The notes: generated by a model from the letters alone, not told the origin. A stretch of DNA of 64,000 bases from Alphaproteobacteria bacterium (GCA_024407875.1 JAKSVT010000001.1:117091-181090); one strand, 5' to 3'; counted from the first letter of the stretch, positions 3 through 52,028 are shown. Program-made: numbers and translations.

Positions 3-542
3 CATGGTGGAAATGATATTGAAGCAACTGTTAAAGAAACAACACAAGCTATTGCTGATGGTGCAGATGAAATTGACGTTGTATTACCATATAAAGCTTT
101 TATGAATGGAGATGTTGAAACAGCTCGTAATTTGTTAAAAGCAACACGTGAAGCTTGCAAAGGTAAAGTAATGAAAGTAATTATTGAAAGTGGTGTTTTA
201 ACACATGCTCAATTAATTGCTGATGCTTCTCGTTTGTCAATTGAATGTGGCGCAAACTTTATTAAAACATCAACAGGAAAAACACCTGTTAGTGCAACAT
301 TAGAAGCTGCAAACGCAATGTTAGAAGTTATTCGTGAAAGCGGTAAACCAGTTGGCTTCAAGGCTTCAGGTGGTGTTCGTACAACAGAACAAGCTGCAGA
401 TTACTTAACATTAGCAGATAAAATCATGGGACCTAAATGGGCAGCAAAGATGACATTTAGATTTGGTGCTTCAGGTTTGCGTGATAGTTTGTTGGCATCA
501 ATGGGTTTTGGTGATAAGCCAACAGAATCTCAAGGCTATTAA
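3..542 (+). CDS. deoC: deoxyribose-phosphate aldolase, 5'-truncated by window edge
   Basis: In-frame ORF runs from the window start. The translation has FIKTSTGK and GFKASGGVRT, matching E. coli-type DeoC (FIKTSTGK...GFKPAGGVRT). Confidence 0.85.
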   Translation, partial: HGGNDIEATVKETTQAIADGADEIDVVLPYKAFMNGDVETARNLLKATREACKGKVMKVIIESGVLTHAQLIADASRLSIECGANFIKTSTGKTPVSATLEAANAMLEVIRESGKPVGFKASGGVRTTEQAADYLTLADKIMGPKWAAKMTFRFGASGLRDSLLASMGFGDKPTESQGY

Positions 543-36992: not shown

Positions 36993-39818
36993 TTGCTGAA
37001 AAATATTTTCATGAACGAATTAACAGAACCATTCTTGAGTGAAGTAAAATCTGAGTTCGATAAAATCGAGCCTTTCTTATCAATGATAAAAAAAGATCCT
37101 TCATTACCAGAATGTTGGGATGCTTTAAAAAAGTTTTTTGAAAGTATTAGAAGTGTAGCTTTGTTTGCTGAATTCCCTAGATGTCATGCTTTGTCAGTAA
37201 GTGCTATTGAAGAAATAGATGGCTATTTAGATAAAAAATTACCTTTAGATGTTTTACCTAGTGTTTTAATGAAATTTCAAAGAATTAGAAAAATTAGTTC
37301 TTCTGCAAATAATTTAAAACGTGAACCTAGAGAGTCTGATGAAGATTTATTATCAAAGAGTGCTAAGAGTGTAAAAACAAAGGCACCATCTTCTATTGAT
37401 GATAAAGTTTTAGAAGTTAAAAAGAAAGATGTTCTTGAACAAGAAAAAAAATTAGATGAAAGAGAAGAACAATTAGTTCAATGGGCGCAAAAACTTTATA
37501 ATCGTGAAAATGATTTACAACAAAGAGAAACATATCTATTTAAAAATGAACAAAGTAATGCAGATGTTCATAAAAAAATATTAGAAGAGCATTCAAAAAT
37601 AGAAATTGAACATGCTAAATTAGATGAGCGTCAATTAGCCATTGAAGAGTTAGAACGTCAAAACGAAGAAGTTAGACAGAATTTAGATGGTCAAAAAAGT
37701 GTTGTTGCTGATCTAAAGAAAACAATTCAAAATTTAAAAAATGAAAAAGAAGAATGGGATTTTAGATTAGGAAAAAAAGATAAAATAATTGCTGAATTAG
37801 AAGATGAATTAGCTGGTAGTAGATTAAGTGTGGATCGTATGAGCGAACAGCTTAAAGAAAGGGACCATCAGCAATTAGAAATTAGTAATTTATTAGAAAC
37901 TAAAAATAAATCAATTAGAGAAGTGACAGAATCTGTTTGTCAATTAGAAGAAAGATTGCTGAAAGTAAGTAATCAGGCTACTGTTACTGAAAATGAGTTG
38001 AGAGCTGAAGTTTCTGTTACTAAACAACAATTAAGACAAAAAGATGAAGAATTAGAAAGTTTGCGTTTTGAATTAAATAATCTTCATAGCAATATTGATA
38101 AAACATCTTCTGATGCTACAAGTCTTAAAAAAGATTATGATGATGTTTTAGATCAATATAATGTTTCAAAAATAAATTTAGAAAAGATTCAAGCTCAAAA
38201 CGCTGATTTAGAACAACGTTGTTCTGAAATGACAGGACAATTTAATGCTTTAAATGATGAAATTAAAGATAAAGCTATTCAATTAAAACAAGCTCAAGAT
38301 CAATTGAAAAAACAATCAGAGCATTATTTAAATGTCCAATCTGAATTAAGAGCTATTGGATGGCCATTAGATATAGAACATTTACAACAAAATTTAGGTA
38401 AAGTTTTAGCTTTTGATGAAGTTCAAGGCAATGGTGCAAAACTTCAATTGTGGAACTTTATCAGAAACATGAGACTTAAACCAGTAATGATTTTAAAGTC
38501 TTTTGTTCAAGGATTTGCTGCTACAAGAGCAAAAAAATATGAAAAAAATTATGCAGTCTCAGTATCATTCCAAGATATTAAGGTAGATAAAGATTGTTAT
38601 ACAACTCTTGAACATGTATTAGCTTCATTAATCGATAATTCTATAAAATATGCAAATTTTGAGGACAATCAAACTCCTGTATTAATTAAAATTTCAACTA
38701 CACAAGTTGGAACAGTTTTGAAGTTAATTTATCAGGATAATGTTAATAACTTTGCTTATGAAAAGATTAGAAGTAATGTTGTTGAAGTAGGACTGTTTTC
38801 TGTTGAAGATGCTCAAGAATTAAGTAATCAGCAATTATTGGATTATACATTCCATAATAGAGTTTTGGCAAATAGTGGAACTCGTGGTTTGTTGTCAGTT
38901 GCAGGAAGCTTAGAACAAATAGGAGGCACTGTAAAAATGACAGCGGATAATGGAATGAAAACTGTAGTTAATATTCCTATTAATGGCATTTATGATAAAG
39001 CTGTTTTGTTCGAAATATTGAGTGATACAATAGATACATCTAATAATATTTATTCTCTGCCAATGGGAGCTGTTATTGAAACGTTCTCATTAAAAGAAAA
39101 GGATTTTGAGGATTTAGGTTCTTTAATTTATCATACAAAAACTGCTGATTTGCCAGTAATATGTATGCCTGGCGTTGATTATACAAAAATGCAATATGGT
39201 ATTGTGTGTCAAGCAGGGGCATTTACATTCCTGTTGCCTGTTTCTAGAATTTTGGAACCTGAATATGTAGTTGTTAATTTGAATGAAAATATTGAAAATA
39301 GGCCATATTTAAAACAGGTTGTAACATTAGATAATAATAGGTTAACAGCAGGAATAGATATTCCAGTATTGTTAAAAATTTGTCCTATTGGTGTTTCTAC
39401 TAGTGAAGAAGATGTCGTTCATGAAGTTAAGGAAAATAAGATAGTTCCAACCCATAATCAAACAGATTCATATATGATATATAATGCAGATCCTCATAAT
39501 ATTGAAGCTGTATTAGTATCTAATGTTGTACGTATTGAAAGCTTTACTGGTGCAAGTATTGATGGAAATTCTGGTGCAAGTATTTATGTATCACAATCAA
39601 AGACATATCCATTAGTAGATTCTTGTAGAAAGAAAGATTTCCAATATGCTCAAACAGTTTTGCTTTTTGCAGATTTTGCATTAGCAGTTCAAGAAGTTAC
39701 AGATATCGTTGATGTAAATATTGAGAATGATCAACCAATCGACTTCTTGTTATACCAAGGTAGAAAAGTTCCTATTAGAACAGGTAAAGAACCTCCTAAA
39801 AGAGAAATAAAAAAATAA
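36993..39818 (+). CDS. CheA-architecture protein: Hpt-like N-terminus, ~300-aa coiled coil, degenerate HATPase_c and CheW-like C-terminal domain
   Basis: N-box-like HVLASLIDNSIKYA; G1 box DxGxG is replaced by YQDNVNN; G2/G3-like NSGTRGLLSVAGSLEQIGGTVKMTADNGMKTVVNIP; CheW-like YSLPMGAVIETFSL. Start is TTG 36993 or ATG 37011, 0-18 nt after the chpT stop. Confidence 0.55.
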   Translation: MLKNIFMNELTEPFLSEVKSEFDKIEPFLSMIKKDPSLPECWDALKKFFESIRSVALFAEFPRCHALSVSAIEEIDGYLDKKLPLDVLPSVLMKFQRIRKISSSANNLKREPRESDEDLLSKSAKSVKTKAPSSIDDKVLEVKKKDVLEQEKKLDEREEQLVQWAQKLYNRENDLQQRETYLFKNEQSNADVHKKILEEHSKIEIEHAKLDERQLAIEELERQNEEVRQNLDGQKSVVADLKKTIQNLKNEKEEWDFRLGKKDKIIAELEDELAGSRLSVDRMSEQLKERDHQQLEISNLLETKNKSIREVTESVCQLEERLLKVSNQATVTENELRAEVSVTKQQLRQKDEELESLRFELNNLHSNIDKTSSDATSLKKDYDDVLDQYNVSKINLEKIQAQNADLEQRCSEMTGQFNALNDEIKDKAIQLKQAQDQLKKQSEHYLNVQSELRAIGWPLDIEHLQQNLGKVLAFDEVQGNGAKLQLWNFIRNMRLKPVMILKSFVQGFAATRAKKYEKNYAVSVSFQDIKVDKDCYTTLEHVLASLIDNSIKYANFEDNQTPVLIKISTTQVGTVLKLIYQDNVNNFAYEKIRSNVVEVGLFSVEDAQELSNQQLLDYTFHNRVLANSGTRGLLSVAGSLEQIGGTVKMTADNGMKTVVNIPINGIYDKAVLFEILSDTIDTSNNIYSLPMGAVIETFSLKEKDFEDLGSLIYHTKTADLPVICMPGVDYTKMQYGIVCQAGAFTFLLPVSRILEPEYVVVNLNENIENRPYLKQVVTLDNNRLTAGIDIPVLLKICPIGVSTSEEDVVHEVKENKIVPTHNQTDSYMIYNADPHNIEAVLVSNVVRIESFTGASIDGNSGASIYVSQSKTYPLVDSCRKKDFQYAQTVLLFADFALAVQEVTDIVDVNIENDQPIDFLLYQGRKVPIRTGKEPPKREIKK

Positions 39819-39829
39819 AGGAGATTAAT

Positions 39830-40522
39830 ATGGTTGAAGAAATCAATAATATTGAAAAAATATATGAAGTCAAAAATTGGGTTTTTGACTTAGATGATAC
39901 ATTGTATCCCCCAAATAAAACATTAAATAATGAAATGGGCGAAAGAATTTCTAATTACATTATGAAAGTTGCTCATGTTGATAAAGAAAGAGCTGATTTT
40001 ATGAAAAAGGATTTTTATCAACGATATGGGGCTACTGTATGGGGGCTGATGAATGAGTATGAAGTTGATCCTGTAGATTTTACAGAAGACATTCATAAGT
40101 TAGATTTATCTGTTTTAAAAAAGGATCCTGAATTAAGAAAAGCAATAGAGTTATTACCAGGTAAAAAATATGTTTTTACAAATGGGGCTTATCAACATGC
40201 AACAGGAGTTATAAAACAAGTAGGATTAGAAGGATTATTTGAAGGAATATTTTCTATTAGAGAAGCGGAATATATTCCAAAGCCAGCACAAGAAACTTTT
40301 ATGAAAATGTTTGATTATTTTGATTTAATTGGCGAAGAGTGTTTAATGTTTGATGATAATCAAAAAAACATTCTTGGGGCAAAAAAGGCTGGAATGAAAA
40401 CTGTTTGGATTTCTTCAAATGTAGATAACAATAAATATTGTATGTCTGAAGAAGCTGATTTTTGCGATTTCCAAGCATTTAATTGTACGGAATTTATAAA
40501 TAAAATTAAGCATGTTCTTTAA
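39830..40522 (+). CDS. HAD-superfamily pyrimidine 5'-nucleotidase-like hydrolase
   Basis: DLDDTLY motif I, and motifs FTNG and MFDDN in 230 aa. Confidence 0.65.
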   Translation: MVEEINNIEKIYEVKNWVFDLDDTLYPPNKTLNNEMGERISNYIMKVAHVDKERADFMKKDFYQRYGATVWGLMNEYEVDPVDFTEDIHKLDLSVLKKDPELRKAIELLPGKKYVFTNGAYQHATGVIKQVGLEGLFEGIFSIREAEYIPKPAQETFMKMFDYFDLIGEECLMFDDNQKNILGAKKAGMKTVWISSNVDNNKYCMSEEADFCDFQAFNCTEFINKIKHVL

Positions 40523-40533
40523 GGAAATGCACT

Positions 40534-41094
40534 ATGACAAAGTTTGACCATTTAGCTGTATTTTGTGGCTCAAGATTAGGTAATGATTCTATATTTAAAG
40601 AAACGGCTTTAGAACTTGGAAAAGAATTGGCAAAAAATAATGTTGCTTTGACTTATGGGGCAGGCCATACAGGAATTATGGGGACTATTGCCAAATCATG
40701 TTTGGATAATGGTGGTAAAGTATATGGCCATATAAATGATTTGTTAAATAATGCAGAACCTATATTGTTTGACATGACAGATATAAGGGTTTATGGCTCA
40801 TTGCATGAAAGAAAAGATGCAATGTTTAAGGAAGCGGATGCTTTTTGTGCAATGCCTGGTGGTATAGGAACATTAGATGAGCTTTTTGAAATAGTTACTC
40901 TTCGTCAAATTAATGAAATAAATAAACCAATAATTGTATGTAATATAAATGGCTTTTGGACACCATTTAAAGAAATGATTGATACATTAATTAAAACAGG
41001 TTTTGCTGATGAAAGTAATGCTCGGTTAGTTACTTATGTTGATAATGTGAAAGATGTTATACCAACTATAAGAAAAGAACTAGGTTTGATGTAG
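40534..41094 (+). CDS. LOG-family protein (nucleotide 5'-monophosphate nucleosidase/cytokinin riboside-phosphate phosphoribohydrolase family)
   Basis: PGGIGTLDELFE motif and YGAGHTGIMG in 186 aa. Confidence 0.75.
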   Translation: MTKFDHLAVFCGSRLGNDSIFKETALELGKELAKNNVALTYGAGHTGIMGTIAKSCLDNGGKVYGHINDLLNNAEPILFDMTDIRVYGSLHERKDAMFKEADAFCAMPGGIGTLDELFEIVTLRQINEINKPIIVCNINGFWTPFKEMIDTLIKTGFADESNARLVTYVDNVKDVIPTIRKELGLM

Positions 41095-41177
41095 AAAATA
41101 AAGATTTATCAAATGTGTTTTGTTTAATTTGCTATAAGCTTTATTAAAGGTGTTCGGTTGTAAAAAATATTATTAAA

Positions 41178-41215
41178 TCCGACAAAATGTAGTTTGCTAC
41201 AAAAACTCGGAATTG
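41178..41215. repeat. palindromic repeat copy A (tccgacaaaatgtagtttgctacaaaaactcggaattg)
   Basis: One of three near-identical ~37-bp copies. Outer arms are aattccga / tcggaatt and inner arms are tgtag / ctaca. Confidence 0.8.
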
Positions 41216-41250
41216 ACATATTAAAAATAAAGAATTATTATTATAATAAG

Positions 41251-41288
41251 TACGACAAAATGTAGTTTGCTACAAAAATTCGGAATTG
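41251..41288. repeat. palindromic repeat copy B
   Basis: tacgacaaaatgtagtttgctacaaaaattcggaattg, 10 bp upstream of the ATPase start. Confidence 0.8.
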
Positions 41289-41298
41289 GAAAAAATAA

Positions 41299-42558
41299 AT
41301 GCTTATAGAAAGACCATATTATTTAAATAAATTAATTAGAAACAAACACAATAAATTGATTAAAATTGTGACCGGCATTCGGCGTTGTGGCAAATCTTTT
41401 TTGTTAAATACAATATTTTATAATCACTTAATACTATGTGGCGTCGAAAAAAATCATATTCTTTCTTATTCATTAGATGAATTAGAAAATATAAATTTGT
41501 TAGATCCAATTCGTTTGCTTCAAGAGATTAAAAATAAATTGGTGGATGAAGAAATGTATTACATTATTTTAGATGAAATACAGATGGTTCCTCAGTTCGA
41601 AAAATTATTAACTTCATTAAATCATATAGCAAACACAGATGTTTACGTTACGGGAAGTAATTCAAAATTTTTATCAAGTGATATTATTACAGAATTTCGC
41701 GGACGAGGAGATGAAATTAGGGTTCATCCATTGTCTTTTTCGGAATATTATTCTGCTGTTCAGGGAGATTTGAATAAAGCATGGTTTGAATATTACACTT
41801 ATGGAGGAATGCCTTTATTAATTAATAAAAAAGAATATGAAGATAAATCAAGCTATTTAAAATCTATTTATGAAAAAGTGTATAAAACAGATATTCTAAA
41901 TCGTTTTAAAATTAAAGACAAAGAAGAGTTGTTTCAAATTTTACAAGTTTTATCTTCTAGTGTAGGTTCATTGACTAATTCTTTAAATTTAGCTAAAGCT
42001 TTTAAACATTTTCATAATCACTGTATAACAGATAAAACAATTTCAAAATATATTTCATATTTGGAAGATGCTTTTTTAATTTCGGATGCTCAACGATATA
42101 ATATCAAAGGAAAAAAGTATATTAGGGCAACTAAAAAATTTTATTTTGAAGATGTTGGAATTAGAAATGCGATGTTAAATTTTCGTCAAAACGAAGAAAA
42201 TCATTTGATGGAGAATATTATTTATAATGAGTTGAAAATACAAGGTTTTAATGTTGATGTAGGGGTTGTTGAAAAGGTTGAAACAACTAAAGATAAGAAA
42301 AAGGTAAGAAAAAAATTTGAAATTGATTTTGTAGCTTCAAAAGCTGATGATTGTTATTATATTCAATCTGCATTGCATTTGAATACACCTGAAAAATATG
42401 AACAAGAGTTGAAGTCATTGCTGAATATTCCTGATCATTTTAAGAAGATAGTCATTGTTAAAGACTATATGCCTCCAACAAAAAATCCAGATGGAATAAC
42501 AATTATTGGAATTACAAATTTCTTGTTGAAAAGTCTTTTTAATTCCGAAAAAATGTAG
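41299..42558 (+). CDS. AAA+ ATPase with C-terminal DUF4143 (COG1373 family)
   Basis: Walker A GIRRCGKSFLL, Walker B IILDEIQ, and a C-terminal EIDFV...YYIQ region typical of DUF4143. The last 5 codons lie inside repeat copy C. Confidence 0.7.
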   Translation: MLIERPYYLNKLIRNKHNKLIKIVTGIRRCGKSFLLNTIFYNHLILCGVEKNHILSYSLDELENINLLDPIRLLQEIKNKLVDEEMYYIILDEIQMVPQFEKLLTSLNHIANTDVYVTGSNSKFLSSDIITEFRGRGDEIRVHPLSFSEYYSAVQGDLNKAWFEYYTYGGMPLLINKKEYEDKSSYLKSIYEKVYKTDILNRFKIKDKEELFQILQVLSSSVGSLTNSLNLAKAFKHFHNHCITDKTISKYISYLEDAFLISDAQRYNIKGKKYIRATKKFYFEDVGIRNAMLNFRQNEENHLMENIIYNELKIQGFNVDVGVVEKVETTKDKKKVRKKFEIDFVASKADDCYYIQSALHLNTPEKYEQELKSLLNIPDHFKKIVIVKDYMPPTKNPDGITIIGITNFLLKSLFNSEKM

Positions 42559-42580
42559 TTTGCTACAAAATTTCGGAATA
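42541..42580. repeat. palindromic repeat copy C
   Basis: aattccgaaaaaatgtagtttgctacaaaatttcggaata. It overlaps the stop of the ATPase gene. Confidence 0.8.
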
Positions 42581-42639
42581 ATAATGTGGTATATTAAAAA
42601 AAGTTCATTAAAATCTTTCAATGAATACTGCGTAAATGC

Positions 42640-42900
42640 TCATTTTTTTATATTCCGAACAGTATCAATTTCAGAATTGATTTCTTCTAAGGTCATATCG
42701 GTTATGCTATTTTGTTTAGCTAGTTGACGCATTTGATAAAAAGTATTCATTGATTTTGTTATCGTATCGTTAGCACTAATTTAAAAAGGTGTTCTTCTTT
42801 CACAAACAACAGCTTTAGCAAAAATATTAAATGCTGTAGATAATGAAAAGCCAAATTCATGACAAAGTTGCTCAAAATTTTGCTTTAATTGTTCATCCAT
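42640..42900 (-). pseudogene. DinJ/RelB-family type II antitoxin with in-frame TAA stop (pseudogene or truncated)
   Basis: Minus-strand translation MDEQLKQNFEQLCHEFGFSLSTAFNIFAKAVVCERRTPF*ISANDTITKSMNTFYQMRQLAKQ... aligns with DinJ (IDEDLKNQAADVLAGMGLTISDLVRITLTKVAREKALPFDL). The TAA at 42781-42783 interrupts the frame. The ORF track missed it because of the stop. Confidence 0.6.
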
Positions 42901-43110
42901 TCGAATGCTAAAAGTTGATTGAGCTATTTATAACATATGAACATAAATGTAACTATAATGGTATTATATGTTAAAATATATTGTTCGAAAAACTATATAT
43001 TTTTTTGACTTATGAAAGTTTCTAATCGAATTAAATCAAGAAGTTTATCAAAGTGAAGATTTGACTAATATTTAATTTACATTAGCATAAAAATACGACA
43101 CGAAGACCAA

Positions 43111-43150
43111 TAAAAAAAAGCCCCGGCATTACCGGGGTTTCCTTTTCGTT
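43111..43150 (-). terminator. rho-independent terminator downstream of tRNA (minus strand)
   Basis: Stem ccccgg, loop catta, stem ccgggg. An A8 run on the plus strand (a T-run on minus) follows the hairpin on the minus strand. Confidence 0.6.
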
Positions 43151-43191
43151 GATCAAGAACAAAACTTCAAAAGCCAAGTTCTTGATTTTAT

Positions 43192-43267
43192 TGGTAGCGG
43201 GTGAGGGATTTGAACCCACGACACAAGGATTATGATTCCTCCGCTCTACCAACTGAGCTAACCCGCC
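43192..43267 (-). tRNA. tRNA with CAU anticodon (elongator Met or lysidine-Ile)
   Basis: Minus-strand sequence GGCGGGTTAGCTCAGTTGGTAGAGCGGAGGAATCATAATCCTTGTGTCGTGGGTTCAAATCCC...ACCCGCTACCA. It has a D-loop AGCTCAGTTGGTAGAGC, an anticodon loop ATCATAA, a T-loop GGTTCAAATCC and an encoded CCA. Confidence 0.8.
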
Positions 43268-43327
43268 ATCAAGACAAGCACTCTTTTATATGCTTTTTTT
43301 TAGTATGTCAATATATTTTTGTAAAAT

Positions 43328-43987
43328 TTATTCTTCTTTTTGATTAATTTGTTTTTCTAAAGCTTTTACTTGGGCTTTTAATTTTTCAATAGCGTCAATA
43401 ATAGGATCTGTTTTTTCTGCTGCGTAAGCTTCAAATTCTTTTACTTCAGCATTCTTTTTAGCTTTAATTATTTGTGCTGGAACACCAACAGCTGTTGCGT
43501 TATTAGGTACAGCTTTTAAAACTACGGCGTTTGATCCGACTCTTGCATCATCTCCAATTGTTATAGGGCCTAATATTTTTGCGCCAGTTCCGACAATTAC
43601 TCTGTTTCCAAGAGTAGGGTGGCGTTTGCCTTTTTGAGTTGTTGTACCACCAAGTGTCACTCCATGGTATAGAGTGCAATCATCTCCAATTACACTTGTT
43701 TCACCAATAACTAATCCTGTAGCATGGTCGATGAACAATCTTTTCCCAATTACAGCAGCAGGATGAATGTCAACGCCAGTAATAAAGCGAGCTATAGTTG
43801 ATAGGAGCCTTGCTATTGTTGTTAATTTCTTTTCCCATAAAAAGTGTGCGACTCTATAGATCATAATTGCGTGTACGCCAGGATAACACAGTAAAACTTC
43901 AATTTTTGATCTAGCAGCAGGGTCCCTTACTACAACAGAATTAATATCTTCAGATAAATCTTTAAATAATTTTATTAGTTTTGACAT
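43328..43987 (-). CDS. cysE: serine O-acetyltransferase
   Basis: Left-handed beta-helix hexapeptide repeats (DIHPAAVIGKRLFIDHATGLVIGETSVIGDDCTLYHGVTLGG). It has an unusual ~45-aa coiled-coil C-terminal extension. Confidence 0.8.
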   Translation of the reverse strand: MSKLIKLFKDLSEDINSVVVRDPAARSKIEVLLCYPGVHAIMIYRVAHFLWEKKLTTIARLLSTIARFITGVDIHPAAVIGKRLFIDHATGLVIGETSVIGDDCTLYHGVTLGGTTTQKGKRHPTLGNRVIVGTGAKILGPITIGDDARVGSNAVVLKAVPNNATAVGVPAQIIKAKKNAEVKEFEAYAAEKTDPIIDAIEKLKAQVKALEKQINQKEE

Positions 43988-44136
43988 GTCTTAAAACCTT
44001 TAGAAAGCAAACGTTCGCAATATATATATGTAAGATGAATGTAATTATCAAGAGTTAATTTTGTTAACTTTTTGGTAAGAAATGTTTGATAGCTTTTAAA
44101 CTAGAAGTATCTGTATATTTTTAAGAAAGGCAAGAA

Positions 44137-47100
44137 ATGTCTAGTTTAAAAAAAGCTCTATTATTAACGACAGCGCTTACTGCGCTTAAGCCGTGTATTG
44201 TTTATGCAGATACAGTTTCTTCAGCTATTGATTTAACGTCAACTACAAGTATTTCTGAAAATAAATATTATGAAGGTAAATCATTTTCTATATATGATCC
44301 TGGTTCAAATCCTAATATAACTTTTACTGGAGGAAGTATATATCATATTACATCTGTTGTTGCTGAACCTGTTGAAGCTGGACGTTATAAAATATCAAAT
44401 GGTGTTTATAATGAGCCCAATATAGGAGAACATGTAAATGAAAAATATGATGGTTCAGCTCTATCTTTTAATCTGTTTGATGGAAATTCTACTGAAATAG
44501 GTAATTTGAATATTTCAGGAGGGGTTATTTCAGATTCTGATACAGGTGCTATAATTATAAAAAAAGGTAATCCTAATATAAATGTTATAATACCTTCACA
44601 TGGGACTGACCCAGAAATTGCAGAAAAGCAAGTTGCAATAGTGTCATCAGGTAATATTAATATTAATGGTGGTGTGTTTAATGTATTGCATAATTTCGGA
44701 GAAAGCTATATTGACTTTAGTCCTAGTTCAGTAAATGAATCTCAAGAGTTTAATCTTTCTGGCGGCACATATAATGTCGGAGTTAATGGAGGAACGGGAA
44801 ATTCTGTTTTAAATCTTGGAAGTATTGGTAATCCTTTAAATATTTCTAGTGGAACTTTTAATGTTTATGAAAATGGTAAAGTAGTATTTAAAGGAGGTGT
44901 GATAACATTCGAGAATAGTCCTTCAAGACCTAATATATTATTTAAAAATGAAGAAAATGCTGATGGAAACGGTAAAGGAGAAATCGTTTTTACAGGCGCG
45001 AATATTAATTTAAAATCAGCAATGACTTGGGAAAATGGAAATATAAGCATTGTGGGAACTGGAGAAAGAGAAATTGCTATTACAGCCCCATGGTCAGTAA
45101 GCAAATTTGATTATTCAGGTTTTTTAGATTTAAAAAGTACAGTTACCGTAAAACAAGATTTTGTAATGGATTCATCTTCGACTTTGAGAGGAACTGGTAC
45201 TATTGTTTTGCTAGAAGGTGCTAATGCGACATTCCAAACAATTACAGATTATAAAGGTTCTATTATTGTAGATAAAAAGAATAGTGGGGCTGCTGGAACT
45301 TTAACATTTGCTGGTGCGGCTAATGTTGACAATATTGTTTTAAATGAATCTACTATGAACGTAAATTCAAGTATTAGTGTTAATACATTAAATATTAATG
45401 GTAGTATTTTAAATATTAAAGATGACTTAACAGTATCTTCCTTAAATTTAACTTCAGGGCAAATTAATTTTACTCAAGATAAAACTATAACATTTAATTC
45501 TACTGCTAATATAGTAAATACAGCAACATTTACAGGTAAAGGTACTTTACAATCTCAAGCTCCAAAAGAAGGCCAAGATAAAGATTTCGTTAATGTAAAT
45601 TTTGTTGACGCTGATGTACCTGGGGAAACAGGATTTAATGGCTATGATGCAGGTACTGGTTTAGCTATTTCAGTTAAATCAAATAAAAATTCTGAAGTAA
45701 ATTTTGAAATGAGTAATACATCAACATTTAATGTAATGTTTACTGAAGAAGGAACGACGAATTTTATAAAAGGAACTTATGAATTTCAAAATATTAAAAC
45801 AGGTTCTTCAGAAACAAGTGGTATAAGTAGTTTTAATGTTCTAGATGAAGCAAAAGTTTATACTCAACAATTGCAAGCAATTTATGGCTCAAAAATTAAT
45901 ATTGATGGTTTCTTTGATGTAAAAACAGCAGATATAACATATAATGATACTATAATTTCAGGTAAAGGTACATTAAGCGTATCAGGACCTTTTAGATATA
46001 CAGGTAAATTTGATAATTTAAATAATATAACTCTTGATGCATCTAGTGGTAATGTTACATTTGATTATGATTCTAATGCAAGTGAAAGTAGGGTAAATAA
46101 ATTAACGTTTATTGCTGATAGTACTCATTCAGGTACATTTAATATTGGTCAAAATGCTGGTGGTAATAAGGCAAGATTTGAAGTTAAAGAATTAGATTTT
46201 TCACAAGTTGAATCTGGAAGTGGTTCTAAAGTTGAATTGTTCGGTAATGGTATTCTAGCATTAAATAATCCTGGTAATGATGTGTCTGGCAATATAGGTA
46301 AGGTTGTTGGTACAGGTACGTTAGAACTTGTTGGTTCAACAAATATTAGTTTGACAGGAAGCGACTTAGATGACAATCAAAAAACTTTAAGATTGCAAAT
46401 TGGTACAGGAACGGCAACTGTTTCTGGAAATACAGAGTTAGCAGGAGTTCAATTTACTGATGAACAAGGTGGAACTTTATCTATTACTCCTGAAGGTGCA
46501 AATTTAACTTTGAATGATTTACAATCTAATAAAGGAAATACTGTTACAGGCAAAGGTAAATTGAGTTTAACATCAACTACAGCCCCTTCTGTTTTAAAAG
46601 GTAAAACATATGTTAATGAAATAGATATAACTAATTCTGATTTAACATTAGGTGAAGAATCAAAAGTTAATACTATATCAAGTAAATCTTTAACAGTTGA
46701 TCAAAACGGAAAAGCTGAATTAGGAACTGTTAGAGCAACTACTGAAGTAAAGTTGTTAGAAAATAGTGTTTCTATCATTGATAATTTAAATACGCCTAAA
46801 TTTACTCAAAATGAAAATTCAGTTTCAACAATTAAAGAAGCTAATACAATTTCAGATGCAATTGTGAATGGTGTTATGAATTTGTATAAAGGGGTAATAA
46901 CAAAATTATCTGGTACAAAAGGTACACTAAATGTAAAAAGTGATACAACGGGTGTTGAAATTACAACAAATTCACAAATTAATACATTAAATGTTGAACA
47001 AGATGGAAAATTAAAAATTGGGACTTCCGTAACTTTTGAAGTTAATAATGTTAATTTAGTTGGTACGGTTGAGGATGGTACATTAAAAGTCGTTGAAAAA

Positions 47101-50100
47101 GGTGTTTTTGGCGATGCGACAATTAATAGTTTAAATAAATTAGAAGCAAATAACGCTAGAGTTGATTTTAATGGCACAAATACCATAAAAGATTTTAGCC
47201 ACAGTAATTCAGATTTGAATGTAAATGGTACCTTAACAATTTCAAATTCTTATGCTGATGATACTGATAATAATTATTCTGATATTACAGGAAGTGGAAC
47301 TCTTATTTTAAACGCAGAATCAACAATTAATTCCAGAATTATAGATTTAAATAACTTGGTTGCTAATGCAGATGTTACATTAGCTAATGATGCTAAAATA
47401 ACTAATGTAACTACAAGAGGAGATGCTGTATTTAAATATAATGACTATATTGAAAATTTAACTGCAGAAGGAAACTTAACTTTAGAAGATGTAAATATTA
47501 TTGGACATTTAACAACAGTTTCGGGTAAAAATGCAACTTTTAATAAGAATAATATAATAGATTACGCAGATATAGCGGGAACTTTAACTCTAGCTTCTGA
47601 TGCTGTTTTGTCAATTAATAATAACTTAGTTTTAAGTGGAAGTATTACTAATGGTATAATCAGTTTAAATGGCTCAGCAAATGCAACATTAAATGGTAGC
47701 GTAAGTAATTTAGTATTAGGTTCAGGAACTGTTTATGTTAAAGATGACATTACAATCGATAACTTAACTACAACATTAAATCCAGGTGGTGTATTAGAAG
47801 TTGATGAAGGAAAAACAGCAACTATTAGAAATCAAATTACAGGAACAGGCTCATTAACTGTTAATAATGCAGGGGCTATTGAATCTGGTGTTAATATTGG
47901 TGGAAGCCTAGATGTTAATGGTGGAACTTTAAAAGTTACTGGCGGATCAAGTGTTACAAACAAAATTGGATATGATTTTGTAATGAATGGCTCATTAACA
48001 AGTGATAATACAGATGATAATTTAGAAATTGGACATGAAGCTTTCTTCAATACAGGTATAAATGCTTATAGTGGTATTATTAAAACAGCTAATGGTACTT
48101 TGAACTTTAACCAAAACGTTGAGAATGTAAATTTAATTAGTGCAAAAACAGGAACAATTAATTTTAATAATGATTTAGCTAATAGTAATGTTAAGTTAGA
48201 AGATGCCGGTGTTGTTAATTTTAAGAAGAATGCAAATATAAAAACCTTAGATACAGCAAAGAATTCAACAGTAAACTTTACAAATGGTGCTGATATAGTA
48301 GATTGGACAAGTGATGGTCGTACAAATATGGATTATCAAGAACTTAGAATTTCTAATTCAGCAACAATGAAATCTAACAGTGTTTTAGCAGTTTCTATTG
48401 ATCCAATGAATCAAAGATATGGCCATGTTAAATTAGGTTCAGCAGCAATGACTATTGAGGATGGTGCTTCTATTGATTGGTCTGCATCATATGGTATGAA
48501 TAATCAAGAAATGACTGTAAACTTGGTTGAAGGTAGTAATATTACAGGTGATTTTGCATTTACTAATGATAATAAACGCTACTCATTAACTAAAGTTGAT
48601 TGTACAGAAGGACGTTGCTATAACTTTAAGACAATAGCAACAGCTTCAGATGTTGTAAGTCAAAGTGGTACATCTAATGGTAATGATAAAAATAACGAAA
48701 AAGTTGCTGCGGCAATATTAGACGGTAAAATTTTTGAACAAGATGATCCTTTCTATGATGTTGTTGTTGCATTAGATAAATTATCTCAAAAGGGTGGAAA
48801 AGAATATGCTGATGCTTTAACAGCTGTTGCTCCTGATATTTCTGGTCAAGTAACCCAACAAGCTGTAGCTTTACAAGCTAAGATAGGTTCAGTTGTTCAA
48901 AATCGTATGATGAACATTGGCAAAGGCTTGGGTAAATCTGTAAATGTAGGAAGATCTACATTTAATGGCGCTAAATATTATGGCCAAAGTGGCGGACAAG
49001 GTTGGTCAAGCAAATATATGCGTTCACAAGATTACTATCGTAAGAATAGTTATGGTTCAAATAAGTTAGACCGCAAGTATAGTAACGATAATTATCATTA
49101 TGATAGATCAAAATATCAATACAGAAATAATGCATCAAATTCGTATAACAATTCCGGATATTTCAGTAATAAAAAATATGATACAAAGTCATATAAATCT
49201 TACAAAGATTATAAGCAAGAACAAGAATATAATAGAGTAAGACAAATTCAAGAAGCTGAAAGAAATTCATATTTTGATGATCCTATAGATCGTAAATATA
49301 GCAGACCTCAACAAAAGCGTTATGCTGATCAAAGAGATGATAGAGAAATTAATTATGCTCAAAATGAAGTAAAACCAGTAGAACAAATTCCTTATGGTAT
49401 GCATGAACCTGTATCTGTAAATGTAGGTTTGTGGGCAGAAGGTTTATATAATAATACAAAATATAAGAAAAAAACTGATTTCGATGGATTTGAATTTGAT
49501 AGTACAGGCGTATCAATGGGTATTGATGCCGTATTCAATGATAATTTAGCATTCGGTTTAGGTTATGCTTCAACATCTGGTGATTTAAAGACTTTAGGTA
49601 AAAAGACAGATGTAGATGGTGATACATATTTCTTATATACAATGCTTAAACCTTCAAATTGGTATGTTTCTTTAGTTGGATCTACAACAGATAATAAATA
49701 TAAAGAAACAAAGACGGTTGCAGGATATAAGATTAAGGCTGATTATGATGCTAAATCTTATGGCGGACAAGTTATGTTTGGATATGATGGTAATGTTGTA
49801 AAACCTTCTGTAGGTGCAAGATTTACCAAAGTTAAAGTTGATGCATATAAAGATAGCGTAGGTCAAAAAGTAGATTCTTCATCAAATTCCGTATCTACGG
49901 CTTTAGCTAGAGTTGATTTTGAAAATGTATTATCAAGAAATTCTGATAGTATGTGGTTGTTAGATACAGGTGTCGGTGCTGAATATGACTTTAAGCGAAA
50001 TGGTGAAAAGACAAGTGTTTCATTATCAAATGGATCTAACTATGAAGTTGAAGGCAAAAAGTTAGAAAAATTTGGAGCTAATGGATCTGTAGGTATTCGC

Positions 50101-50205
50101 TACCAAGCAGCTAAAGGAGTTGTTGTTTCAGCTGAATATAACTTAGATTGGCGTAAAGATTATACATCTCATAATGTCACAGCAAACATTCGTTGGAATT
50201 TCTAA
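44137..50205 (+). CDS. autotransporter (type Va) with ~1600-aa beta-helical passenger, Tyr/Lys/Asn-rich linker and C-terminal beta-barrel
   Basis: Signal peptide MSSLKKALLLTTALTALKPCIVYA, many degenerate G/N/T-rich passenger repeats, and a C-terminal barrel ending ...NIRWNF. Confidence 0.8.
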   Translation: MSSLKKALLLTTALTALKPCIVYADTVSSAIDLTSTTSISENKYYEGKSFSIYDPGSNPNITFTGGSIYHITSVVAEPVEAGRYKISNGVYNEPNIGEHVNEKYDGSALSFNLFDGNSTEIGNLNISGGVISDSDTGAIIIKKGNPNINVIIPSHGTDPEIAEKQVAIVSSGNININGGVFNVLHNFGESYIDFSPSSVNESQEFNLSGGTYNVGVNGGTGNSVLNLGSIGNPLNISSGTFNVYENGKVVFKGGVITFENSPSRPNILFKNEENADGNGKGEIVFTGANINLKSAMTWENGNISIVGTGEREIAITAPWSVSKFDYSGFLDLKSTVTVKQDFVMDSSSTLRGTGTIVLLEGANATFQTITDYKGSIIVDKKNSGAAGTLTFAGAANVDNIVLNESTMNVNSSISVNTLNINGSILNIKDDLTVSSLNLTSGQINFTQDKTITFNSTANIVNTATFTGKGTLQSQAPKEGQDKDFVNVNFVDADVPGETGFNGYDAGTGLAISVKSNKNSEVNFEMSNTSTFNVMFTEEGTTNFIKGTYEFQNIKTGSSETSGISSFNVLDEAKVYTQQLQAIYGSKINIDGFFDVKTADITYNDTIISGKGTLSVSGPFRYTGKFDNLNNITLDASSGNVTFDYDSNASESRVNKLTFIADSTHSGTFNIGQNAGGNKARFEVKELDFSQVESGSGSKVELFGNGILALNNPGNDVSGNIGKVVGTGTLELVGSTNISLTGSDLDDNQKTLRLQIGTGTATVSGNTELAGVQFTDEQGGTLSITPEGANLTLNDLQSNKGNTVTGKGKLSLTSTTAPSVLKGKTYVNEIDITNSDLTLGEESKVNTISSKSLTVDQNGKAELGTVRATTEVKLLENSVSIIDNLNTPKFTQNENSVSTIKEANTISDAIVNGVMNLYKGVITKLSGTKGTLNVKSDTTGVEITTNSQINTLNVEQDGKLKIGTSVTFEVNNVNLVGTVEDGTLKVVEKGVFGDATINSLNKLEANNARVDFNGTNTIKDFSHSNSDLNVNGTLTISNSYADDTDNNYSDITGSGTLILNAESTINSRIIDLNNLVANADVTLANDAKITNVTTRGDAVFKYNDYIENLTAEGNLTLEDVNIIGHLTTVSGKNATFNKNNIIDYADIAGTLTLASDAVLSINNNLVLSGSITNGIISLNGSANATLNGSVSNLVLGSGTVYVKDDITIDNLTTTLNPGGVLEVDEGKTATIRNQITGTGSLTVNNAGAIESGVNIGGSLDVNGGTLKVTGGSSVTNKIGYDFVMNGSLTSDNTDDNLEIGHEAFFNTGINAYSGIIKTANGTLNFNQNVENVNLISAKTGTINFNNDLANSNVKLEDAGVVNFKKNANIKTLDTAKNSTVNFTNGADIVDWTSDGRTNMDYQELRISNSATMKSNSVLAVSIDPMNQRYGHVKLGSAAMTIEDGASIDWSASYGMNNQEMTVNLVEGSNITGDFAFTNDNKRYSLTKVDCTEGRCYNFKTIATASDVVSQSGTSNGNDKNNEKVAAAILDGKIFEQDDPFYDVVVALDKLSQKGGKEYADALTAVAPDISGQVTQQAVALQAKIGSVVQNRMMNIGKGLGKSVNVGRSTFNGAKYYGQSGGQGWSSKYMRSQDYYRKNSYGSNKLDRKYSNDNYHYDRSKYQYRNNASNSYNNSGYFSNKKYDTKSYKSYKDYKQEQEYNRVRQIQEAERNSYFDDPIDRKYSRPQQKRYADQRDDREINYAQNEVKPVEQIPYGMHEPVSVNVGLWAEGLYNNTKYKKKTDFDGFEFDSTGVSMGIDAVFNDNLAFGLGYASTSGDLKTLGKKTDVDGDTYFLYTMLKPSNWYVSLVGSTTDNKYKETKTVAGYKIKADYDAKSYGGQVMFGYDGNVVKPSVGARFTKVKVDAYKDSVGQKVDSSSNSVSTALARVDFENVLSRNSDSMWLLDTGVGAEYDFKRNGEKTSVSLSNGSNYEVEGKKLEKFGANGSVGIRYQAAKGVVVSAEYNLDWRKDYTSHNVTANIRWNF

Positions 50206-50222
50206 TTTGCTAGTATAAAAAG

Positions 50223-52028
50223 ATGGAAAACGAAGCTCCGATATTTTCAGTACAAAATGTAGAACTTTCATTTGGTGGAAAGCCTTTATTTACAGGTATT
50301 GATATATTTATTAAACGAGGCGATAAAGTATGCCTCATTGGAAGAAATGGTTCTGGTAAATCTACTTTATTAAAAATAATTGCAGGATTAATAGAACCTG
50401 ACAAAGGTGAAAAGTTTTTACAGCCTGGCATTAAAATAGCTTATATGGCACAAGATTCTGATTTTAAAGATTATAATACTTTAAGAGATGTTGTTTTATC
50501 TGGTTTAACAGATCAAAGTGAAACCTTTAAAGCTGATATTTTATTAGACAATTTTGAAATAAATGGCGATTTGTTGGTTTCTAAAGCATCAGGTGGTGAA
50601 AAGAAAAAAGCTGCTATGGCAAAAGCTTTGGTAAGTGAACCTGATTTGCTTTTGTTAGATGAACCTACTAACCATCTGGATATTTGGACTATTGAAAAAA
50701 TAGAAAAGTTAGTAAAAGATTTTAATGGCGCTGTAATTGTTATTAGCCATGATAAGGCTTTTTTAAATTCTGTTTCAAATGCAACGATTTGGATAGATAG
50801 AGGAAAAGTCTATTCAATGGATAAAGGTTTTGTTGAATTTGAAGAATGGTCTGAAAATATTTTAGAACAACAAGAGCTTGAAGCTATAAGATTAAAGAAA
50901 AAAATAGAAAGAGAAACTCAGTGGCTTCATAAAGGCGTTACAGCAAGACGTAAACGTAATATGGGAAGATTAAGACGTTTACAGGATCTAAGATTAGAAA
51001 GAAAAGAACAAATCAAATCTCCACAAGCAATAGATATATTTGTTGATAGCGGCAATGTTGCTTCTAAATTAGTTATTGAATGCAAGCATTTATCTAAACA
51101 ATATGAGGACAGAAAAATTATAGATGATTTTTCATTTAGATTAATGCGTAAAAATAAAATAGGTATAGTAGGAACTAATGGCGTTGGTAAAACAACTCTA
51201 ATAAAGTTGTTAACTGGAAAAATTGAGCCAGATAGTGGTTCAGTTCGAATTATGCGTAATTTGCAGGAAGCTTATTTTGATCAATCTAGAGCGACTTTAG
51301 ATTTAAATAAAACAATAAAAGAAACTTTATGCCCTGATGGCGGCGATACGGTTTTTGTTGGAGAAGAGCCAAGGCATGTAATAAGCTACATGAAAGATTT
51401 CTTGTTTACACCAGCTCAATTAGATCAACCTGTTTTAGCTTTGTCTGGTGGAGAAAAGAATAGACTTATATTAGCAAAAACTTTGGCTAAACCATCAAAT
51501 TTATTAGTTCTTGATGAACCAACTAATGATTTAGATATGGATACTCTTGATTTATTACAAGAGACATTGATGAACTATGATGGAACAGTATTAATTGTAA
51601 GTCATGATAGAGATTTTTTAGATAATGTTGCTACTTCTATTTTGTATTTATCAGGTGATGGAAGTGTGGTTGAATATGTAAGTAGTTGCTCTGATGTAAT
51701 TAAAATGATTAAAGAAAAAGAATTAAAAGCTAAAGAGCAAAAAGAAAAAGCGTTAAAGAAAGAGACAAAAAAGGTAGAAGAGACACCAAAGCAAAATTCT
51801 AATAGAATGTCTTATAAAAATAAAAGATTGTTAGAGATTTTACCTAAAGAAATTGAAGACTTAGAAGAACAAATAAATAAGATAGAAAATGTTTTAAATG
51901 ACCCTGAATTATATTCAAAAAATCCTAATCAATTTACAGCTTGGTCAGAACAATTAGAGCAATTAAAAACACAAAAAGATGAAAAAGAAACATTATGGCT
52001 CGAGCTGTCATGCATGGCAGATGAATAA
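50223..52028 (+). CDS. ABC-F family ATPase (Uup/EttA-like)
   Basis: Two ABC cassettes (GRNGSGKST / GTNGVGKTT, LSGGEKKK / LSGGEKNR) with an inter-domain linker and a C-terminal coiled coil. Confidence 0.8.
   Translation: MENEAPIFSVQNVELSFGGKPLFTGIDIFIKRGDKVCLIGRNGSGKSTLLKIIAGLIEPDKGEKFLQPGIKIAYMAQDSDFKDYNTLRDVVLSGLTDQSETFKADILLDNFEINGDLLVSKASGGEKKKAAMAKALVSEPDLLLLDEPTNHLDIWTIEKIEKLVKDFNGAVIVISHDKAFLNSVSNATIWIDRGKVYSMDKGFVEFEEWSENILEQQELEAIRLKKKIERETQWLHKGVTARRKRNMGRLRRLQDLRLERKEQIKSPQAIDIFVDSGNVASKLVIECKHLSKQYEDRKIIDDFSFRLMRKNKIGIVGTNGVGKTTLIKLLTGKIEPDSGSVRIMRNLQEAYFDQSRATLDLNKTIKETLCPDGGDTVFVGEEPRHVISYMKDFLFTPAQLDQPVLALSGGEKNRLILAKTLAKPSNLLVLDEPTNDLDMDTLDLLQETLMNYDGTVLIVSHDRDFLDNVATSILYLSGDGSVVEYVSSCSDVIKMIKEKELKAKEQKEKALKKETKKVEETPKQNSNRMSYKNKRLLEILPKEIEDLEEQINKIENVLNDPELYSKNPNQFTAWSEQLEQLKTQKDEKETLWLELSCMADE

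Follow-up and report, generated by a model that had tools for sequence, protein, structure and literature searches.

Locus-specific palindromes bracketing the predicted promoter of an AAA+/DUF4143 ATPase gene as its candidate operators

RESULTS

The ATPase gene and its surroundings

The locus centres on an AAA+ ATPase gene in a 64,000-nucleotide stretch of an alphaproteobacterial metagenome-assembled genome (MAG), the whole of which is referred to as the window. Three copies of a palindromic repeat and a predicted promoter accompany the gene (Table 1), and besides a RelB pseudogene its neighbours encode a HAD nucleotidase, LOG, cysE, an autotransporter and an ABC-F protein.

Table 1. Features of the ATPase locus, in window positions
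Feature	Position	Strand	Remarks
Repeat copy 1 (distal palindrome)	41178-41215	.	38-nt core TCCGACAAAATGTAGTTTGCTACAAAAACTCGGAATTG; centre ~-104 from the ATG
Predicted sigma-70-like promoter, TTGACA-17-TATTAT	41213-41241	+	11/12 consensus match only; between copies 1 and 2
Repeat copy 2 (proximal palindrome)	41251-41288	.	38-nt core TACGACAAAATGTAGTTTGCTACAAAAATTCGGAATTG; centre ~-31 from the ATG
ATPase gene	41299-42558	+	419 aa; AAA_14/DUF4143; PADLOC candidate PDC-S01
Repeat copy 3	42544-42581	.	38-nt core TCCGAAAAAATGTAGTTTGCTACAAAATTTCGGAATAA; at the ATPase stop codon
RelB-type antitoxin pseudogene	42640-42936	-	Two in-frame stops
tRNA-Met(CAU)	43192-43267	-	
Repeat sequence			TCCGAnAAAATGTAGTTTGCTACAAAAnnTCGGA

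The encoded protein matches AAA_14 (PF13173, E = 2.1e-31, residues 20-150) and DUF4143 (PF13635, E = 1.8e-19, residues 197-355), and a check against defence HMMs yielded a strong match to the PADLOC candidate PDC-S01 (PDLC04787, E = 4.8e-113, residues 2-411), in agreement with the AAA+/DUF4143 assignment of a preliminary description of this DNA. The Walker A (GIRRCGKS) and Walker B (ILDEIQ) motifs are conserved in the family alignment. AAA+, winged-helix and nuclease-like domains are seen in an AlphaFold model, with the winged helix at residues ~205-285 and the PD-(D/E)XK-like domain at ~300-410, and a PDB sequence search with the family profile gave no match. The canonical ExK of the nuclease-like domain reads QSA in this ATPase subfamily, so that an intact PD-(D/E)XK catalytic motif is absent.

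Sequence and arrangement of the three palindromes

The preliminary description had also claimed three near-identical palindromic copies, two in tandem just 5′ of the ATPase start and one on its stop codon, and both their number and their placement were confirmed, with the third core delimited as in Table 1. Pairwise identities among the three 38-nt cores are 36/38, 33/38 and 33/38, and repeat detection in the window recovered the same three-copy family (D2). When a 15-nt core was searched with up to two mismatches, exactly 3 sites were found in 64 kb versus 0.36 expected, and none of 100 shuffles reached 3. The palindrome is built of a TCCGA(A) outer arm, an A-run, a TGTAG inner arm, a TTTG loop, CTACA, a further A-run and (T)TCGGA; the left outer arm of copy 2 is degenerate (TACGA), and symmetry is most nearly perfect in copy 3.

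Copies 1 and 2 lie 73 bp apart, 5′ of the ATPase ORF. Copy 3 spans the last five ATPase codons, N S E K M, and its inner arm contains the TAG stop (42556-42558); the window ATPase ends in FLLKSLFNSEKM where the family consensus has the C-terminus FLLDENSLxL, with the last five codons supplied by copy 3. Similarity between the copies is confined to the ~38-bp core and does not extend significantly into the flanks (p = 0.14 to 0.98). A larger duplication of the upstream region was considered for copy 3 and rejected, as the flank likeness seen by eye failed the shuffle test (copy 1 versus copy 3, p = 0.14 and 0.47). The core of copy 3 is 33/38 identical to the upstream copies, yet its flanks are unrelated, and the closest clade has a downstream copy of its own (see below), which together suggest that the third copy is under constraint.

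The repeats might alternatively be genome-wide REP- or MITE-like palindromes, or sites of a host global regulator, that cluster here by chance, which we consider very unlikely. Some alphaproteobacterial symbionts are rich in small palindromic repeats, the host is AT-rich, and the part searched was 64 kb of a 205-kb contig; but all three copies lie at one gene with none elsewhere in the 64 kb, and relatives from other phyla hold different palindromes at equivalent positions, which a host-specific element cannot explain. Queries with the exact 21-mer core gave no match in IMG/VR and a single one among 185,579 species genomes other than the source MAG, in a Paludibacteraceae MAG (L001), which was judged a chance match because it has neither the outer arms nor any ATPase. 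Terminal inverted repeats with a target-site duplication were not found either, the unit being a single 38-bp palindrome with no duplicated target in its flanks. With no further copies in the 64 kb, no target-site duplications and no related match of the core elsewhere, the MITE-like reading offered in the preliminary description is not supported.

A predicted promoter between copies 1 and 2

TTGACA-17-TATTAT is the best sigma-70-like match within 40900-43400. Such matches were not enriched in this AT-rich region (21 found versus 17 expected), and the promoter call is based on this one 11/12 match and on its conserved position, since 16 of the 27 homologous loci that were inspected share this layout (match >= 9/12, with the -10 ending 41-61 nt before the ATG, beside the proximal palindrome). 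The right arm of copy 1 abuts or overlaps the -35 hexamer, and copy 2 begins ~10 nt past the -10 hexamer, leaving 10 nt between its end and the ATG. Apart from two tiny ORFs (31 and 23 aa), both overlapping palindromes, the upstream intergenic region contains no ORF, and thus no other candidate binder is encoded nearby.

Paired palindromes at homologous ATPase loci

The paired arrangement recurs widely among relatives of the ATPase. Of 72 non-redundant metagenomic loci with a homologue, 43 showed a 72-78 bp offset in the best-scoring direct repeat upstream of the gene, versus a chance expectation of 2.9 (binomial p = 7e-41), and this was independently replicated in IMG/VR viral contigs (16/34 homologous loci, p = 7e-14). 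Control regions 3′ of the genes gave 4/66 at 72-78 bp, none above the shuffle threshold. Minor offset classes of 85-88, 95 and 147 bp correspond to ~8, 9 and 14 helical turns, and such whole-turn spacings, like that of the 72-78 bp class, are the signature of one protein complex bridging both sites. About 40% of the homologous loci scored below the repeat threshold. Named isolates carry the paired module as well, i.e. Butyricicoccus, Roseburia and Prevotella nigrescens plasmid records.

Palindrome centres cluster at -23 to -38 and at -97 to -120 from the ATG, with those of the window at -31 and -104. The palindromes differ in sequence among loci (for example TGTAG in the window and TGCGGA at L037) and agree within a locus, a pattern that shared ancestry alone would also give; across loci, nearly every arm position shows each of the four Watson-Crick pair types, and the only gene common to the otherwise unrelated neighbourhoods is the ATPase. 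Counted from the centre, the arms pair well at positions 1-5 and 11-19 but poorly at 6-10, i.e. the half-sites are bipartite.

The pair was not seen in relatives of at most 35% identity (Ruminococcus albus, Ilyobacter, Listeria and Moraxella), nor at a second, canonical (IEVK) DUF4143 paralogue in the locus L003, and therefore the module is a trait of a subfamily and not of all DUF4143 genes. Beyond the window, a downstream copy occurs only in the closest clade (L002-L006), 3 nt past the stop, and it matches the clade's own, different, upstream palindrome; none was present at 40 other scanned loci with paired upstream sites of their own.

DNA sites or RNA hairpins

The palindromes could instead work as RNA hairpins at the 5′ (copy 2) and 3′ (copy 3) ends of the transcript, being stabilising, terminating or factor-bound, a reading that we regard as unlikely. 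Copy 3 folds as RNA at -14.6 kcal/mol (z = -5.7) exactly at the stop, and no other terminator precedes the convergent relB remnant, the only ones called within 40900-43400 lying at 43118-43140; but it lacks a U-tract (AAUAAUAAUG comes next) and was not called by the terminator scan. Given the predicted promoter, copy 2 would sit at the extreme 5′ end of the mRNA, but its hairpin is weak (-5.7 kcal/mol, z = -1.1), and folding of the predicted 5′ UTR does not exceed that of shuffled sequence (z = 0.11). The distal palindromes, both copy 1 and its counterparts at the other paired loci, lie 5′ of the promoter and would not be transcribed, and hairpins that merely stabilise need not share sequence, as these copies do. 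No Rfam family matched the palindromes: in the Rfam 15 scan the tRNA alone passed the gathering score, and the sole match with E <= 1 in 41100-42700 was a chance-level Lnt inside the ORF.

Mismatches within the arms bear on the same question. G:T and A:C mismatches were equally frequent across loci (28 versus 29 in proximal and 33 versus 31 in distal palindromes), so no RNA wobble signature was detected, and the lack of G:U bias together with the distal copy lying 5′ of the promoter points to action on double-stranded DNA. A further point in favour of the RNA reading is the strand-specificity of the A-runs beside the inner stem: sense-strand A-runs flank both sides in all three window copies and in many other loci (proximal A:A mismatches 69 versus T:T 16), an asymmetry that is unexplained by a purely symmetric protein-DNA site.

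Genomic neighbourhood and the question of mobility

A tRNA(CAU) gene and a decayed toxin-antitoxin locus had been proposed to lie beside the ATPase. The tRNA-Met gene is indeed there, and of the toxin-antitoxin locus the RelB pseudogene with its in-frame stops was found, but no toxin gene is present. A comparison of GC and codon usage between the ATPase and its neighbours had been suggested as a check. Of 46 ORFs, the ATPase gene is the poorest in GC (26.2%, z = -2.4), a deficit that arises at codon positions 1 and 2; in GC3 it does not stand out from the window (z = +0.8), nor does its codon-usage distance rank among the ten largest, and hence there is no compositional sign of recent transfer. 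The flanking ORFs within 36993-52028 include no integrase, transposase or recombinase, the core occurs only at the three copies and thus not in the tRNA gene, and most relatives have no downstream copy, all of which told against the att-like reading. Among the three readings offered, the regulator-operator one alone fitted the comparative evidence, namely sequence-distinct palindromes at the same two positions, bracketing a promoter-like -35/-10.

The closest ATPase homologues are at most 60% identical, the named few coming from Bacilli-type MAGs and the rest from metagenome contigs, and the host here is an alphaproteobacterial MAG. For the neighbouring LOG gene, the nearest homologues are at most 59% identical, lie among different genes and are not syntenic. 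The ATPase family is patchy, occurring on 217 plasmids, on viral contigs and also embedded in other loci. A 2630-bp circular Prevotella record comprises the ATPase gene and part of a TaqI-like restriction-modification gene, and that ATPase gene also lies on a 568-kb replicon of another P. nigrescens strain.

Such patchiness and the circular record would suit a mobile cassette (site, promoter, site, ATPase, site) that entered by the tRNA-Met gene and displaced a relBE-type toxin, with the repeats as its recombination or end sites. As direct repeats, copies 1 and 3 enclose the gene precisely, the last codons come from copy 3 in place of the family C-terminus, and the place where the toxin of the RelB pseudogene would be expected is the 3′ end of the ATPase gene. 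However, the downstream copy is confined to the window and L002-L006, the upstream copies keep promoter-fixed positions across the family, no recombination gene lies nearby, neither a target-site duplication nor similarity to the tRNA was found, GC3 and codon usage are those of the host, and the nuclease-like domain has no canonical ExK. We therefore hold a cassette of this kind to be quite unlikely.

A remnant replicon, in which the paired palindromes and the AT-rich stretch form an origin-like or iteron-like site on which an AAA+ winged-helix protein similar to ORC/Cdc6 is loaded, appears highly improbable. The inverted-repeat sites do flank an AT-rich 35-bp stretch beside the gene, and the family is frequent on plasmids; but the stretch has well-placed -35 and -10 hexamers in many loci, the plasmids inspected range from 23 kb to 2.1 Mb with a MOB-suite-typed replicon cluster in two, the 2.6-kb Prevotella circle with its restriction-modification fragment is not a minimal replicon, and chromosomal copies like that of the window are single genes in housekeeping neighbourhoods. 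A role of the ATPase as plasmid replication protein was likewise found unsupported, given the content of the 2630-bp record and the presence of the same gene on the 568-kb replicon.

DISCUSSION

The three repeats are, on balance, probably cognate DNA recognition sites, i.e. operators, of the ATPase gene that they surround, as judged from sequence comparison. The ATPase itself is most likely the binder, as suggested by its co-occurrence with the palindromes and its DNA-binding folds; the effect on the gene would presumably be repression, and a role of the third site is likewise proposed here from its position and conservation. In the arrangement envisaged, copies 1 and 2 would bracket the promoter with the distal site touching the -35 and the proximal one covering the transcript start, and as their centres are 73 bp, or about seven helical turns, apart, they would lie on the same face of the DNA. 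Each half-site of the ~38-bp palindrome would offer an outer and an inner block about one helical turn apart with an A-run between them, and the ATPase may bind each palindrome as a dimer. Its AAA+ domains could then join two bound sites, wrapping or occluding the promoter, and this occlusion would repress the ATPase's own transcription. The third site, in this clade, may give the ATPase a hold on the 3′ end of the gene, through which a loop with the promoter sites could form or transcription entering or leaving the gene could be blocked. One property of the protein sits uneasily with this proposal: the predicted recognition helix of the winged helix (residues 245-257) is rather conserved across loci with differing sites, so that specificity must come from elsewhere, or the assumption about the binder is wrong.

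A wider interpretation, which seems rather unlikely, is that this subfamily of PDC-S01 is not a free-standing nuclease but a site-specific AAA+ DNA-binding machine, whose nuclease-like domain has become a sequence reader. Each gene would then have a private 'address' of two, or here three, bipartite palindromes placed whole helical turns apart, and the protein would assemble on these sites and wrap the promoter of its gene, while in this clade the entire gene would be looped. An ATPase addressed to its own gene in this way could serve as a switch, an activity being set free once the complex is disturbed, for instance by phage DNA or proteins; alternatively, within the same interpretation, a self-contained mobile gene cassette could have these sites as its ends.

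AAA_14/DUF4143 genes of the PDC-S01 type are reportedly among the commonest candidate defence genes in bacteria and archaea, and a large subfamily with locus-specific, helically phased palindromes around its own promoter provides a concrete and testable handle on them. The module predicts sequence-specific DNA binding by the protein and supplies candidate sites for each member, and a nuclease-like domain without ExK may read DNA, not cut it. One PDC-S01 representative was assayed in E. coli B, and the four candidates reported to protect against T7, T5 or T4 do not include it (bioRxiv 10.1101/2024.09.26.614923); such a screen, in which the bare coding sequence is driven by a foreign promoter, leaves out the native control region. 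For the window itself, what looked like a 'mobile islet' would, on the operator reading, be an ordinary single gene that regulates itself.

PDC-S01 has been described as an ATPase fused to a PD-(D/E)XK superfamily domain and as the fourth most common prokaryotic defence candidate (PMC12988326; PMC3424549). The window protein resembles it in matching the HMM over its full length and carrying both Pfam domains, and differs in that its subfamily has QSA for the canonical ExK; in the literature searched, no description of conserved palindromes flanking PDC-S01 genes was found.

REP, MITE and Rickettsia palindromic elements are likewise short, AT-rich, imperfect palindromes in several copies, but the window repeat is undispersed in the available sequence, lies at one gene in fixed positions, and has counterparts of different sequence in relatives. 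The archaeal orc1/cdc6 origin recognition boxes share with the locus an AAA+ winged-helix gene beside inverted repeats that flank an AT-rich stretch. C-boxes of restriction-modification C proteins and toxin-antitoxin operators resemble the sites described here in being locus-specific palindromes 5′ of a mobile, conflict-associated gene; they evolve together with their binding proteins, and autoregulation through them is tight. However, small HTH or RHH dimers bind these operators, which are short and either adjoin or overlap instead of lying 73 bp apart, and no ATPase is involved.

Paired, phased operators that bracket a promoter are known from gal (OE/OI), lac (O1/O3) and ara (I1/O2). The window and its relatives have in common with these systems two putatively cognate palindromes on either side of a predicted core promoter at approximately whole helical turns (72-78, 85-88, 95 and 147 bp). 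We know of no established precedent for a third operator at a stop codon, and the window sites differ further in being ~38 bp long and bipartite. The binder in gal, lac and ara is a dedicated small repressor, whereas the sole candidate here is the 48-kDa AAA+ protein encoded by the regulated gene itself.

Three palindromes surround the ATPase gene

The window derives from the metagenome-assembled alphaproteobacterium GCA_024500545.1 (∼31% GC; 205,615-bp contig), in which the AAA_14/DUF4143 ATPase gene had been described as surrounded by three palindrome copies, and this was borne out by coordinates, core identities and frequency. The 38-nt cores of copies 1–3 displayed identities of 36/38, 33/38 and 33/38, and the 15-nt centre ATGTAGTTTGCTACA (≤2 mismatches) occurred three times in 64 kb versus 0.36 expected, with no shuffle reaching three. 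Copies 1 and 2 are spaced by 73 bp and both located 5′ of the ORF. No further copies were found in the 64-kb window by the 15-nt core scan and repeat search, and among 185,579 species genomes the sole exact match to a 21-nt core, at 4860–4880 of L001 (Paludibacteraceae MAG JAEEMG010000083.1), was judged to be due to chance rather than a related copy, as it lacks the outer arms, has no ATPase nearby and lies just 5′ of an unrelated 603-aa ORF. On the 64 kb and the species genomes searched, a dispersed MITE-like element, as once proposed, is thus unsupported.

Features of the ATPase locus and of the encoded protein
Feature	Position	Strand	Remarks
Palindrome copy 1	41178–41215		Upstream of ATPase ORF
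Sigma-70-like promoter, TTGACA-17-TATTAT	41213–41241		11/12 consensus match, best of region
Palindrome copy 2	41251–41288		Upstream of ATPase ORF
ATPase ORF	41299–42558	+	419 aa
Palindrome copy 3	42544–42581		Contains ATPase stop codon
RelB/DinJ-type antitoxin pseudogene	42640–42936	−	One frame, two in-frame TAA stops; Pfam RelB E = 4e-9
Terminator-like site, bidirectional	43118–43140	both	GC-rich hairpin, T-runs both sides
AAA+ domain	ATPase		AlphaFold2 model
Winged helix	Helices 208–220, 228–239, 245–257; beta hairpin 261–283		AlphaFold2 model
Alpha/beta domain	Residues ∼300–410		AlphaFold2 model

Downstream of the ATPase, the RelB pseudogene is followed by tRNA-Met. Of the decayed toxin–antitoxin locus suggested in the preliminary description, the antitoxin part with its two stops stood; no toxin gene lies beside it, the expected place being taken by the ATPase 3′-end and copy 3. 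The only two terminator calls in 40900–43400, one per strand, fall at the site that separates the RelB remnant from the tRNA gene. A 2022-aa ORF (44137–50205, + strand), which NCBI names autotransporter domain-containing protein, immediately follows cysE and the tRNA. The GC3 of the ATPase (18.6%) lies within the usual range of the window (z = +0.8) and its codon usage unremarkable, so comparison with its neighbours gave no sign of a recent transfer; its overall GC of 26.2%, the lowest of 46 ORFs, is due to codon positions 1 and 2. No integrase was found among the genes near the ATPase and the repeat core was not found in the tRNA gene, leaving the proposed att-like site unsupported as well. 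Together with GC3 and codon usage, these observations speak against an insertion that is recent or has definable boundaries, and no relatives near enough for defining an empty site were found. An old acquisition would fit both the RelB/tRNA-Met context and the presence of Bacilli-type MAGs among the nearest named homologues listed.

Paired palindromes bracket a predicted promoter in many homologous loci

At least 8000 ATPase homologues exist (8000/8000 scored candidates at E ≤ 1e-20); among the matches listed, the closest are only 60% identical, and the few named ones are Bacilli or Izemoplasmatales MAGs. In the first loci examined, the palindromes 5′ of the gene shared outer arms (ATTACGAAA ... 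TTTCGTAAT), whereas their inner arms differed yet remained self-complementary; one clade had such a palindrome 3 bases past the stop as well. A search of the 260 nt upstream of homologous genes in 80 metagenomic and 39 viral-contig loci yielded a best direct repeat at an offset of 72–78 bp in 43 of 72 non-redundant metagenomic loci versus 2.9 expected (p = 7e-41), with 40 loci above the 99th percentile of shuffles. This was replicated in 16/34 viral-contig loci (p = 7e-14), while control regions 3′ of the genes had this offset in only 4/66, none over the shuffle threshold. Minor offset classes of 85–88, 95 and 147 bp were also observed, so that the offsets are quantised near 7, 8, 9 and 14 helical turns. 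Extra locus-specific copies beyond the usual two positions were present in L021 (∼−844 from ATG) and L024 (∼−607).

Across loci, the palindrome centres fall 23–38 and 97–120 nt before the ATG (31 and 104 nt in the window), and a sigma-70-like −35/−10 sits between them, the proximal palindrome beginning directly after the −10; a ≥9/12 promoter match was found in the same place in 16 of 27 loci inspected. This module of paired palindromes and promoter is present in the named isolates Butyricicoccus, Roseburia and Prevotella nigrescens; paired palindromes were not found in relatives at ≤35% identity, nor beside the canonical paralogue. The P. nigrescens locus L093 (NZ_CP133466.1, 1–2630) is a 2630-bp circular ‘plasmid’ record containing only a TaqI-like restriction-modification/methyltransferase gene fragment and the ATPase homologue (45% identical), which is preceded by GCGTATTTACGC and GCGTTTTTACGC at a distance of 76 bp; one methyltransferase motif region recurs at both record ends. 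This ATPase gene seems to split a restriction-modification gene; alternatively, the circle was generated by excision or during assembly.

The sites would act on double-stranded DNA

Across 39 distinct proximal and 42 distinct distal elements, complementarity counted from the centre was high at positions 1–5 (inner arm) and 11–19 (outer arm) and low at 6–10; each half-site thus consists of two blocks separated by roughly one helical turn. Nearly every arm position displayed all four Watson–Crick pair types, symmetry being kept while the sequence varies by locus, and G:T and A:C mismatches were equal (28 versus 29 and 33 versus 31), and the G:U tolerance that an RNA helix formed by one strand should show was not apparent. 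The distal palindrome sits 5′ of the promoter, copy 2 is weakly folded as RNA (hairpin of −5.7 kcal/mol, z = −1.1), shuffled sequences fold as well as the predicted 5′ UTR, and no Rfam family matching the repeat region was found. Judged from sequence, these features place the probable site function on double-stranded DNA. A symmetric protein–DNA site does not explain the strand bias of the A-runs on both sides of the inner arms (A:A 69 versus T:T 16 in proximal sites), which occur on the sense strand in all three window copies, where the spacer positions are A:A mismatches, not A:T pairs.

A third site overlaps the stop codon

When 41 loci with paired upstream sites (window included) were each scanned for their own palindrome, a further downstream copy was found in the window only. 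The only other one was found in the closest clade (L002–L006), whose upstream site is single; it matches that palindrome at 33/38 (counted by hand) and begins 3 bases past the stop. The genes of this clade, 60% identical to the window ATPase, lie in an island (e.g. L003 1–9254) with a Pkinase/PIN protein, an HTH_3 protein, a VapE-like primase and, on the opposite strand and without paired palindromes, a second, canonical (IEVK) DUF4143 ATPase.

Copy 3 has a conserved core, but its flanks show no relationship to the copy 1 and copy 2 flanks; it is therefore a discrete maintained site, the leftover of a larger duplication being ruled out by the flanks. It encodes the last five codons and stop of the ATPase, the usual family C-terminus FLLDENSLxL being replaced by FLLKSLFNSEKM. 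As RNA it folds well (−14.6 kcal/mol, z = −5.7), has no U-tract and was not called in the terminator scan. It could loop with the promoter sites, block transcription arriving from the convergent relB remnant, or form a 3′ hairpin.

The ATPase is the most economical candidate binder

The ATPase matches AAA_14 (E = 2e-31) and DUF4143 (E = 2e-19); no NCBIfam model was found for it. The PADLOC check proposed earlier gave a strong full-length match to the candidate model PDC-S01 (E = 5e-113). DUF4143 is listed in the PD-(D/E)XK superfamily without an assigned function (PMC3424549), and PDC-S01 is described as an ATPase fused to a PD-(D/E)XK domain and as the fourth most common prokaryotic defence candidate (PMC12988326). 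In the only PDC-S01 test found in the literature, one representative expressed in E. coli B was outside the four candidates reported protective against T7, T5 or T4 (bioRxiv 10.1101/2024.09.26.614923). An AlphaFold2 model (pLDDT 80, pTM 0.79) comprises three parts. In a profile alignment, the IEVK (ExK catalytic motif) of the canonical paralogue lies opposite Y-I-Q-S-A, which is invariant in 22/22 aligned subfamily members, so the nuclease-like domain may be catalytically inactive.

The neighbourhoods inspected in detail were unrelated, such as housekeeping genes in the window, the kinase/primase island of L002–L006, and dCMP deaminase plus BcrAD in a Bacilli MAG, the sole common gene being the ATPase. 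The window upstream intergenic region holds only two tiny ORFs (31 and 23 aa), both overlapping palindromes. As the only shared gene product, with a winged helix and a restriction-enzyme-like domain, the ATPase would be the most economical binder. Reading palindromes as a dimer is classical for restriction-type folds. The ATPase would thus bind its own palindromic sites, and its AAA+ domains would join two bound palindromes across the promoter; caution is called for here, as the predicted recognition helix shows fair conservation between loci that differ in their sites. Of the three readings of the repeat, a regulator operator is favoured by the palindrome pairs at fixed spacing in both locus sets; the palindromes are most likely autoregulatory operators, a real feature of an ordinary functional kind.

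Comparison with known operator systems

No description of the paired-palindrome module was found in the accessible literature, and its family-wide occurrence is a modestly novel clue, amenable to direct testing, to an abundant gene family that is uncharacterised. Functionally, the module resembles the gal, lac and ara operators, which are paired, helically phased and promoter-bracketing, and, as self-specific operators of conflict genes, those of restriction-modification controller proteins and toxin–antitoxin loci. Four features set it apart: its presumed binder, a large AAA+ protein, is the product of the regulated gene; each site is bipartite and spans ∼38 bp; the spacing is constant at seven turns; and a third site lies at the stop codon in the window's clade.
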